DNA of 50,514 nt from a virus (lineage: Duplodnaviria > Heunggongvirae > Uroviricota > Caudoviricetes), in IMG/VR virus record IMGVR_UViG_2534681773_000022, one strand, 5' to 3'. The translations under genes were made by a program, and so were the position numbers. Shown piece after piece: positions 18,206-19,664 of the stretch (position 1 is its first letter; the number at the start of each line of letters is the position of its first letter). The notes beneath the pieces were generated by a model. The model ran no database searches. It was not told the DNA's origin and was given only the letters and a program-made list of their open reading frames with translations.

Positions 18206-18376
18206 GGTGATGGTGGACTTCAGCAGCCGGATAATGTCGGTGCTGTCTGATGATGTTTTGGTGGCGGGTGTGGTGGTTGTTGCTTTCCCGTTGCTGAAAA
18301 AGAAAGCATCAGGCGATTAGCAGGGTATCAGTTACCCGTTGAAATTTTTAAATACCTCACAATTCCACAGCTTGAT

Positions 18377-18578
18377 GATTGTCTGGCTGCCGGAGAATTT
18401 GTTAAAAATTACATCGCATGGTGAATCCCCCTCAGCGGCGGGGCATCTGGCAAAGTGTATGATCCAGAGAACATGCAAATTCAGTAGACAGGCTGAATTT
18501 ACCGGGAGGCACCTGGCACCATGCGACAGACAGAAATTAGGCTATACTTCAGCCCCTCTCCGGAGGGGCTTTTCTGTG
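18377..18578 (+). repeat. Structured non-coding element, copy A (about 200 nt, ending in an intrinsic terminator)
   Basis: About 80% identical to copy B in its 5' and 3' blocks; long-range complementarity CGCATGGTGAAT / ATTCACC...CACCATGCG; ends AGCCCCTC-tccg-GAGGGGCT + TTTT. Confidence 0.6.
18551..18578 (+). terminator. Intrinsic terminator closing repeat copy A
   Basis: Perfect 8-bp stem AGCCCCTC/GAGGGGCT followed by TTTTCTGTG. Confidence 0.7.
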
Positions 18579-18764
18579 CAGGATGTGTCACAGTTTCCTG
18601 AATTCTGAGTACTGTCCTGTTACTCAGGGTGCTATATTTTCTGACGTGATGAAAGTCTGCCGGAAGGCGGAACGTATCGGAAATGACCCAGTAGAGAAAA
18701 CGTTGACTCAGATACCGATGCTGAGTTACCGGGAAACCGGCATCACATGACCGCTATCCTTCCA

Positions 18765-18788
18765 GGCTCGCTCCGGCGGGCCTTTTTA
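18765..18788 (+). terminator. Intrinsic terminator (GGCTCGC-tccg-GCGGGCC + TTTTT)
   Basis: GC hairpin with the same tccg loop as the repeat terminators, followed by five T. Confidence 0.6.
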
Positions 18789-18842
18789 CTGCAGAAAACA
18801 GTTTTCCCGTAAAATGCTACGTTGCTCATAATTCAGGCTGGC

Positions 18843-19040
18843 GATTATTGTCTGGCCAGCGGGAAGTTTGTTAAAAAATTTCGCATGGTGAATCCCCCTG
18901 TGCGGAGGGGCAATCAGCGAGTAGGTATATGGGATAATCGCGGATTCAGGTGCTGGTACTGAATTCACCGGGAGGCACCCGGCACCATGCAATGGCACAT
19001 AGCGCCACTCTCCAGCCCCTCTCCGGAGGGGCTGTTTATA
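18843..19040 (+). repeat. Structured non-coding element, copy B (tandem partner of copy A)
   Basis: Shares the 5' block (ATTGTCTGGC...TTTGTTAAAAA...CGCATGGTGAATCCCCCT) and 3' block (AATTCACCGGGAGGCACC..GGCACCATGC...CAGCCCCTCTCCGGAGGGGCT) with copy A. Confidence 0.6.
19005..19040 (+). terminator. Terminator hairpin closing repeat copy B (weaker T-tract)
   Basis: Same AGCCCCTC/GAGGGGCT stem, followed by GTTTATATTGATTTT. Confidence 0.5.
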
Positions 19041-19068
19041 TTGATTTTGTCAGATGTGAGTAAACTCC

Positions 19069-19404
19069 TTATGGACTTTGTTGTTTTAGTCCATAAGGAC
19101 ATATTTGCAGAGTGCAACGGTTATTAAAGCATTCATTCAATACGTTATCTGTATTTGTAGGGCATTCCTGGCTGTTTTTGATTAAATTCCAGAATGTTTT
19201 ATTGAATGGCACTACGTTGTAAATGGTTACAGGTAGCACTTTGTTATTGAGCATGATGCCTGTGTGAGTCAGTGTAAATATACTTTCAGGAGGTAAGAAA
19301 GCATCCGATTGATACCAGATTATTAATTTTATTTTACTCCATATGACTGAAAAAGATATTCCGCATGATGGCTGGATAACTGTATCAATCACAATCCACT
19401 TCAT
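19069..19404 (-). CDS. Hypothetical AT-rich orphan protein (111 aa, Cys-containing)
   Basis: ORF with AAGGA RBS 7-8 nt upstream of ATG, in a sharply AT-rich stretch on the strand opposite the late operon; no family recognised. Confidence 0.45.
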
Positions 19405-19664
19405 TTAGTTTCCTTGTTTATGCCTTGCTGGTGATGTTCTGAAAAGTATAAATGATATTTTTGATTGTAAACCATAGAGCAGAATTATTTTTCTGATGTT
19501 GTTTATTGTTTATTTAAATGCAGGGTGGTTTATATCTCGTCTTGTAGTTTATCCATGCATATCTGCTTGATGATGAGGTTTTTATTTAAGGTATGGTTTT
19601 GTGTTTTTTCTGTATTACATGTCAGGTATTTTAAAGAATCATTTTTCAGATGGTGGAAAGAACC

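Follow-up and report, generated by a model that had tools for sequence, protein, structure and literature searches.

The stretch of viral DNA analysed here (IMG/VR record IMGVR_UViG_2534681773_000022, Caudoviricetes; 50,514 nucleotides, hereafter the window) carries at 18380-19040 three tandem genes of STnc100, a small-RNA (sRNA) family of lambdoid prophages, an identification that is near certain. Coordinates throughout are those of the window, and the genes are called A (first repeat), B (middle copy) and C (second repeat; Table 1). A and C are members of the curated family (Rfam RF02076), B has its architecture, and all three are folded, terminator-capped and non-coding. A sequence-only reading of this DNA had proposed structured RNA elements in a Shiga-toxin (Stx) slot that lacks the toxin genes; its overall view was right, and the object that it described is a known, curated and common sRNA family. 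The finding is thus already known, since STnc100 has been published as a prophage sRNA family and the array is common in E. coli: the segment 17900-19700 is covered to at least 80% in 1014 of 5426 complete E. coli genomes, and array copies nearly identical to those of the window are also present in sequenced phages.

The two elements of about 200 bp from which that reading started are direct repeats (A, ~18377-18578; C, ~18843-19040) which share 73% identity over a global alignment and, as described, are most alike in their outer blocks, where identity amounts to 80% (18374-18408 and 18843-18877), 91% (18414-18445 and 18881-18912), 94% on the 3' side (18493-18524 and 18959-18990) and 93% in the terminators, the centre between the blocks being variable. 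A search of the whole window with the covariance models of Rfam 15, which the earlier reading had suggested as a check, matched both repeats to STnc100 on the + strand across the whole model (positions 1-206), with 140.5 bits for A (18386-18579) and 132.8 bits for C (18855-19043) at a gathering score of 47 bits; the corresponding expectation values (E) of 5e-31 and 5e-29 show that these are not chance matches. With a model built for this work (R1) from 50 diverse viral-contig copies, no window sequence being included, A scores 89.6 bits and C 94.2 bits, and the fold z-score of A is -2.5. Quantitative PCR primers published for STnc_100 in vesicles of Shiga-toxin-producing E. coli strains match copy C exactly (18884-18903 and 18957-18976). 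No PasA/PasC-type sRNA was found in the window, and a further weak match of R1 (36814-36956; 12.9 bits, E 0.32) was discounted as noise.

Copy B, which lies between the two repeats, fails the STnc100 gathering score and is a relative outside the curated family boundary. It appears in a permissive Rfam scan (18615-18790; 30 bits, E 6e-4) and with R1 (18644-18748; 25.1 bits, E 3e-4 for the whole window), and retains the whole architecture in a different sequence: P1 closes the core, P2 (6 bp) has a GGAA loop, P4 measures 7 bp, UAUCGG forms the pseudoknot with CCGAUG of the P4 loop, P5 (4 bp) has a GAAA loop, and the copy has its own terminator. The B type is found in more than 100 viral contigs (including loci L328 and L330) as two variants with compensatory changes in P2 and the terminator, and the extended -10 sequence located 5 nt upstream of the model start is conserved in both variants among the IMG/VR contigs. 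Copy B is a maintained paralogue, not debris. The third terminator that had been seen between the repeats is thus present as a hairpin, and is not free-standing but the 3' end of copy B.

The opposite orientation of the open reading frames (ORFs) overlapping A (18339-18608, +) and C (18786-18998, -), from which a non-coding nature had been argued, is as reported, and the elements are RNA rather than protein-coding. No same-strand frame is conserved in both copies or across the family, where any one frame is open in at most 20 of 62 distinct members and core lengths are spread over all three classes modulo 3; of the window copies, A is open in frame +1 alone, C in frame -1 alone and B in none. 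It is very improbable that small proteins made from the overlapping ORFs (the two above and 18583-18750, +) are what matters here. Such ORFs of 55-89 amino acids exist and are annotated as hypothetical proteins in GenBank phage record ON470612, but the Pfam search of the overlapping ORFs gave no match, their strands differ between the two copies, the indels among members are not multiples of three, and RefSeq calls none of them, one pseudogene fragment excepted. RefSeq has no annotation on the sRNA genes and some GenBank records put hypothetical proteins there, while one GenBank record of an Stx2 phage already annotates "Gammaproteobacterial sRNA STnc100".

The core is closed by P1 and contains, in order, hairpin P2, a variable insert and hairpins P4 and P5, with a pseudoknot joining the strand immediately 3' of P2 to the loop of P4. 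Each repeat carries a perfect 10-nt long-range complement, which in copy A is formed by TCGCATGGTG (18414-18423) and CACCATGCGA (18517-18526; 100% complementary across 10 nt). Family members for comparison were gathered from IMG/VR using two independent sequence anchors; a pattern with 15 specified bases gave only chance matches in unrelated phyla, and longer patterns on viral contigs succeeded. In a structure-blind MAFFT alignment of 54 diverse cores, standard pairs occupy 92.8% of the cells versus 42-46% with the partners slid by 1-3 columns, the covariation score is 0.351 versus 0.03-0.12, and compensatory changes occur in 6 of 8 pairs of P1, 3 of 5 of P2 and all 5 tested of P4. The same holds for 111 distinct model-aligned sequences (91.2% paired versus 40-46%; covariation score 0.461 versus at most 0.10). 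The comparative test that had been proposed for the predicted pairing thus supports P1, P2 and P4 in more than 100 distinct phage copies, and bears out the STnc100 consensus structure through compensatory changes in these three helices. P5 is almost invariant, partly because it served as a search anchor. The frequent G-U pairs, together with T-runs on one side only, identify the + strand as the RNA strand.

The register of P2 supported by covariation is a 5-bp stem with one bulge and a UNNGC pentaloop (CCCCC/GG(A)GGG, or GC(A)CGC opposite GCGGC in divergent members), which differs from the Rfam consensus line. An RNAalifold alternative on the first alignment, in which UCCC pairs with GGGA of P5 and replaces both P2 and P5, was rejected after divergent members had been added; it had been misleading because its columns were invariant by ascertainment. 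The long-range pairing described at first was borne out as far as the closing helix, which is backed by compensatory changes, but its GAAT/ATTC extension was not. The pairing GGTGAAT/ATTCACC was rejected, as it is not conserved: the 933W partner is ACTCACC, and the ATTC strand covaries with the 5' strand of P4, a local hairpin of which it is a part.

A pseudoknot in the core is well supported by comparison of the family members. The 6-9 nt immediately 3' of P2 are complementary to the P4 loop in nearly all members and across many sequences, for example AUCAGC/GCUGAU, AUCAGUAC/GUACUGAU, CUGGUG/CACCGG, AAUGAUC/GAUCAUU, AAGGUUG/CAACCUU, AACUGGCA/UGCCAGUU, CCAGUC/GACUGG and CUAGAC/GUCUAG. At least 6 contiguous pairs form in 84% of 82 distinct segment/loop pairs; the figure falls to 11% when the loops are shuffled and to 20% when they are exchanged among members. 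In an alignment made with a model that left the pseudoknot pairs out, 74% of the cells in fixed columns pair versus 21-54% when slid, all 6 pairs change on both sides, and 0 of 500 shuffles reach the observed score. The pseudoknot is a conserved, covariation-supported part of the core, and no description of it was found; it is absent from the Rfam STnc100 structure line and not mentioned in a 2026 preprint (bioRxiv 10.64898/2026.05.13.724894). Among the window copies, C has 7 pseudoknot pairs, B has 6, and A only 3+1 because of one loop substitution: its P4 loop reads GACAG, versus GCCAG in a near-identical relative (L196:2746-2854), which breaks CUGGC/GCCAG in the middle.

Tandem arrays of 2-5 copies are common elsewhere, with spacings of about 250-470 nt. 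Arrays of 3-5 domain copies at about 250-nt spacing were seen in viral contigs L296 (4380-5459 and 8380-8515), L259, L269, L129 and L258, and many of their members bear canonical promoters (TTGACN, 17-18 nt, -10) that end 4 nt before P1. A divergent subgroup (L253, L292, L301 and L305) has no terminator 3' of the domain; another stretch of about 80 nt follows there, which contains long-range complementarity (ATCAGGCG...CACCTGATG) and suggests a larger RNA. The divergent members examined for gene context have no common neighbour, L262 lying by a repressor region and L301 by a portal gene.

A, B and C each end in a 3' Rho-independent terminator. The GC hairpin with a TCCG loop that had been seen at the end of each element was found in both repeats with a stem of 8-9 bp and a T-run, and in the same form at the end of copy B. 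The repeat terminators lie on the + strand only, and the surrounding 3.6-kb region contains 13 terminator-like sites versus 4.3 +/- 1.8 in shuffles. Three terminators within 700 bp upstream of the esterase and lysis genes could suggest that the repeats matter as DNA or as bare terminators, which in the lysogen would shield the lysis genes from constitutive transcription of tRNAs and cargo and aid cassette recombination, the RNA being a by-product. Homology blocks flanking variable segments, mosaic modules, and a slot whose borders (tRNA, esterase) are conserved and whose cargo differs would agree with this; such a role, however, needs no compensatory preservation of pairing or of a pseudoknot on one strand with many G-U pairs, and it is considered quite improbable.

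A role of the genes as cis-acting attenuators, i.e. platforms of a riboswitch-like aptamer and a terminator that in the lysogen would regulate read-through to the esterase and lysis genes, is improbable. A pseudoknotted domain that is closed by P1 and precedes a terminator, placed within an operon ahead of genes, would be suited to it, and in A and C the 3' strand of P2 is able to pair with the 5' half of the terminator. However, that pairing is not conserved, as the terminators are unrelated in PasD, in copy B and in members whose P2 is of the GCGGC type; many members have their own promoter directly upstream; arrays of 2-5 copies and the stable homologue sRNAs fit separate genes better; and Q antitermination already bypasses terminators in lytic growth. 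A switch between P2 and the terminator was rejected, since the terminator does not covary with P2.

Upstream of P1, a promoter of the form TTGACN, 17-18 nt and a -10 ending 4 nt before P1 is found in 40% of 109 distinct upstream regions versus 6% in shuffles, a pattern that supports independent promoters which would fire at the base of P1 across the family. In A, C and 933W, the E. coli-type copies, there is only TTGYCT, 18 nt and TAAAAA with TGT before it. The promoter-like block of A is conserved in C and 933W, and its position fits the 5' end of PasD2 and the promoters of the divergent members; 46-57 nt ahead of P1 a conserved CTCACAATTCAG motif is also present. Promoter assignment for these copies is ambiguous, and the 5' ends of A and C are uncertain because the promoter elements are weak, EcOnc27 is longer than expected (see below) and the CTCACAATTCAG motif lies upstream; the 5' end of E. 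coli-type copies may lie upstream of P1 or be made by processing.

STnc100 is known in the literature as EcOnc27 (Sakai Sp5) and sRNA103 (EDL933), both from O157 strains, and transcripts of close homologues have been shown by Northern blot, RNA-seq, Hfq cross-linking and analysis of cDNA (CRAC) and the ligation and sequencing of interacting RNAs (RIL-seq) (PMC4104026, PMC5331693, PMC8550237). Tree et al. 2014 described convergent sRNAs in the cargo site of Stx phages and recovered EcOnc27 by Hfq CRAC. On Northern blots EcOnc27 is 235/247 nt long, the 247-nt form being affected by hfq; the probe used is the exact reverse complement of the end of P1 and the linker of the 933W/Sakai copy. In EDL933, 11 STnc100 loci have RNA-seq reads with low ribosome coverage, one of them Northern-confirmed, and RpoD binding has been reported at Salmonella STnc100 promoters. 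Overexpression of EcOnc27 raised fimZ and espA transcripts, as cited in a 2025 study in which haemolytic uraemic syndrome was associated with variants of the STnc100/EcOnc27 region, located just downstream of stx2B (PMC12711010). The variants, at +90 and +103 from the Sakai stx2B end, seem to fall within TTTGTTAAAAAAATTTC (933W, L003 3790-3807), a placement made from coordinates only; as this sequence stands just upstream of P1 (P1 start = +104), they would lie in a putative -10/discriminator and not in the folded RNA. A and C share with EcOnc27 the fold, the terminator type, the late-region slot upstream of the esterase and the + orientation with respect to the late operon. They differ in that the window has three tandem genes rather than one, no stx upstream and no convergent AsxR/AgvB downstream; the P3 insert also differs, and the linker of A resembles that of EcOnc27 whereas the linker of C is of another class.

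PasD1 and PasD2 of enteropathogenic E. coli E2348/69 are RNAs of 172-173 nt with the 5' end at the G of GCAUGGUG (the mapped end of PasD2 is the first G), and their RIL-seq chimeras and the seed UGUGAG are located in the 3' linker. EcOnc13 of Tree et al. has been reported as the PasD homologue of enterohaemorrhagic E. coli Sakai, and a common ancestor of PasD and STnc100 has been argued, PasD lying upstream of the esterase (bioRxiv 10.64898/2026.05.13.724894). The window copies resemble PasD in P1, P2, the pseudoknot and P4, in the position directly after a DUF3927 ORF, in a 5' end that would lie at GCAUGGUG and, for PasD2, in the place upstream of the esterase. PasD, however, reaches only 38-41 bits against STnc100, and of its P5 the 3' half is missing; it has another terminator and a long linker rich in U that bears the seed UGUGAG, which neither A nor C carries. 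When aligned with PasD including its seed, the linkers and terminators of A, B and C all differ, the PasD probe itself not having been searched against the window; this probe matches the PasD1 locus of E2348/69.

The anti-sRNAs AsxR and AgvB (RF02703 and RF02702) occupy the same cargo slot 3' of PR', and AsxR converges on the STnc100 terminator in Stx2 phages. They are RNAs of 51-60 nt on the opposite strand, and in the window the IraM-like gene stands in that position; neither family has a match in the window at gathering or at E up to 10, the positive control being AsxR of 933W with 88.1 bits. Lambda 6S RNA and StxS are short late-region RNAs that end at intrinsic terminators and are read through by Q-modified polymerase. 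They are like the window genes as short, intrinsically terminated late-region transcripts, but start at PR' itself, which together with its terminators lies about 2 kb upstream in the window (near 16290-16383), whereas the STnc100 genes seem to be served by promoters of their own; the sequences show no similarity.

Taken as a whole package, the genes probably encode independently transcribed, terminator-capped, Hfq-associated base-pairing sRNAs; for the base-pairing mechanism itself the chances stand about even. Each gene would be transcribed separately into an RNA of about 145-160 nt, with its start at or near P1 and its end at the terminator. The RNAs would accumulate in the lysogen and associate with Hfq through their 3' part, composed of the variable linker and the terminator, where the linker would bear a seed pairing with host or prophage mRNAs. 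The 3' part is proposed as the Hfq-binding, seed-bearing region because it contains the seed of PasD as well as the probe sites of EcOnc27 and PasD. A, B and C probably address different targets, since their linkers differ and linkers recombine independently of the 5' domains. In lambdoid phages, Q-modified RNA polymerase reads through terminators; after induction it would pass all three terminators of the array, which would therefore be no block to late-gene expression.

Several points weigh against this interpretation. The evidence of expression, Hfq association and targets comes from homologues only, and PasD levels are scarcely altered in an hfq mutant according to a published table. Judged by the consensus, A and C have weak promoters (TTGTCT, 18 nt, TAAAAA; no T at -7), EcOnc27 at 235/247 nt exceeds the P1-terminator distance by about 60-70 nt, and the pseudoknot of copy A is weakened. 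A base-pairing sRNA, moreover, needs no 110-nt pseudoknotted domain conserved across more than 100 variants, and this domain recurs in the dicF-dicB leader, without a terminator; both observations suggest that its main function may lie elsewhere.

That recurrence is a fourth copy of the folded domain in the window, which fails the STnc100 gathering score and is, like copy B, a relative outside the curated family boundary. Located within a polycistronic mRNA, this copy begins 21 nt past DicF (4588-4537, -), and its end is 28 nt short of the dicB ATG (4362). This leader of Qin-type prophages has the same folded domain with its own pseudoknot (CAGUUAA/UUAACUG), but differs from A-C in having no promoter or terminator of its own. 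The dicF-dicB segment is covered to at least 80% in 3978 of 5426 complete E. coli genomes, and a structure in the leader is not mentioned in one recent paper on dicBF regulation.

The most serious alternative to base-pairing sRNAs is that the RNAs act mainly via the folded 5' domain, as a protein binding site or decoy, a small-ligand sensor or a 5' stabiliser, the domain being a module joined to different 3' parts, namely linker and terminator in A-C and the dicB message in the fourth copy. The domain is conserved far beyond the needs of a seed scaffold: in more than 100 distinct copies every helix and the pseudoknot are preserved by compensatory changes, the nucleotides of junctions and loops (AAU, the UNNGC pentaloop, CCGGG-AGGCA-CCCGG) are near-invariant, 5' domains are exchanged independently of 3' linkers, and the same domain recurs in the widespread dicF-dicB leader. 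It is nevertheless unlikely to be how the RNAs mainly act, as the domain is not known to have a partner, the Rfam scans gave no match to a riboswitch or ribozyme family, all functional sites mapped so far are in the 3' part, PasD is without half of P5 and copy A has the weakened pseudoknot.

Table 1. Features of the sRNA array, its surroundings and the dicF-dicB copy in the window.
Feature	Coordinates	Strand	Remarks
Fourth copy of the folded domain	4391-4516	-	R1 73.4 bits, E 4e-16; Rfam STnc100 38.7 bits
tRNA with CAU anticodon, ileZ-type	17959-18034	+	Met by ARAGORN; tRNA-Ile in RefSeq
tRNA-Arg (UCG), argN-type	18044-18120	+	Rfam/tRNA scan, RefSeq
argO-like third tRNA, 5' fragment	18138-18178	+	anticodon loop CTTCTAA; 77% to the preceding tRNA
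DUF3927 ORF, small, hydrophobic	18180-18320	+	Pfam PF13064, 65.6 bits
Copy A promoter-like element	18379-18408	+	TTGTCT, 18-nt spacer, TAAAAA preceded by TGT; putative
STnc100 copy A	18416-18576	+	core 18416-18524, variable linker 18525-18550, terminator 18551-18570 and T-run
Copy B extended -10	18630-18638	+	TGcTATATT; putative
Copy B, diverged STnc100 paralogue	18644-18787	+	terminator 18764-18783
Copy C promoter-like element	18848-18877	+	TTGTCT, 18-nt spacer, TAAAAA; putative
STnc100 copy C	18883-19038	+	core 18883-18990, pseudoknot AUCAGCG/UGCUGGU, linker, terminator 19013-19034
IraM-family anti-adaptor ORF	19069-19404	-	NCBIfam NF007393, 162 bits (cut-off 121)
SASA-family sialate esterase, nanS-p type	19650-21521	+	conserved right border of the slot

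The array lies in a cargo slot between tRNA genes and a sialate esterase gene. The late-region layout of Stx phages, with a slot for stx, had been recognised correctly: in 933W the order is tRNAs, stx2AB, STnc100, AsxR and esterase, so that the tRNA-esterase interval holds stx2AB, and the backbone of the window matches. The stx-slot reading is right because 933W carries STnc100 (207.7 bits) 75 nt downstream of stx2B, convergent with AsxR and upstream of the esterase. The Stx-phage late-region backbone is common to both, and the slot of the window contains the DUF3927 ORF, the three sRNA genes and the IraM-like gene. The Stx A or B subunit gene is indeed missing, as tblastn with Stx2A and Stx2B of 933W gave no match with E < 0.5 across the window, and no ORF longer than 111 amino acids lies within 18120-19650. 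The suggestion that the repeats mark the toxin insertion point is only loosely borne out: STnc100 flanks stx2 on the 3' side in 933W, but the family also occurs in many stx-free prophages and at other positions.

A RefSeq region 99.6% identical to the window encodes, in order, a DUF968 protein, RusA, an antitermination protein, a DNA methyltransferase, tRNA-Ile, tRNA-Arg, a DUF3927 protein, IraM, a SASA esterase, a holin, a lysozyme and a lysis protein. About the first 40 nt of the argO-like tRNA are kept, cut after the anticodon loop where homology to argO of 933W stops, and this truncated gene marks the left junction of the cargo slot. The DUF3927 ORF begins 1-2 nt past this breakpoint, and the succession of a DUF3927 ORF and an sRNA is also seen ahead of PasD1 and PasD2 in E2348/69. 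The IraM-family ORF converges on the sRNA array and sits where AsxR sits in 933W; a 12-bp perfect inverted repeat (19066-19099) overlaps the 3' end of this prophage cargo gene. Elsewhere in the prophage there are matches to a hok/sok-type antitoxin RNA (11914-12089, +; 117 bits) and to IS009 RNA (49225-49422, +; 217.5 bits).

As posed, the finding is a rediscovery of a curated sRNA family that has been discussed for Stx phages since 2014, and it changes little. Its by-products beyond Rfam, all drawn solely from comparing sequences, may be worth examining in their own right: the pseudoknot, the corrected register of P2, the paralogue below the threshold and the dicB leader. It is possible, if doubtful, that the STnc100/PasD core of about 110 nt is an autonomous pseudoknotted RNA module acting by its three-dimensional shape, through protein or ligand binding or regulated stability. 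Temperate phages of enterobacteria may then deploy the core both as the 5' end of sRNAs, singly or in arrays of 2-5, and, in most E. coli, as the dicF-dicB leader, where the Hfq seed region of the sRNAs may be an exchangeable 3' appendage. If so, the curated annotation would miss the pseudoknot and the subfamilies (B type and dicB leader), and a core that functions on its own would be a widespread phage RNA module open to experiment.

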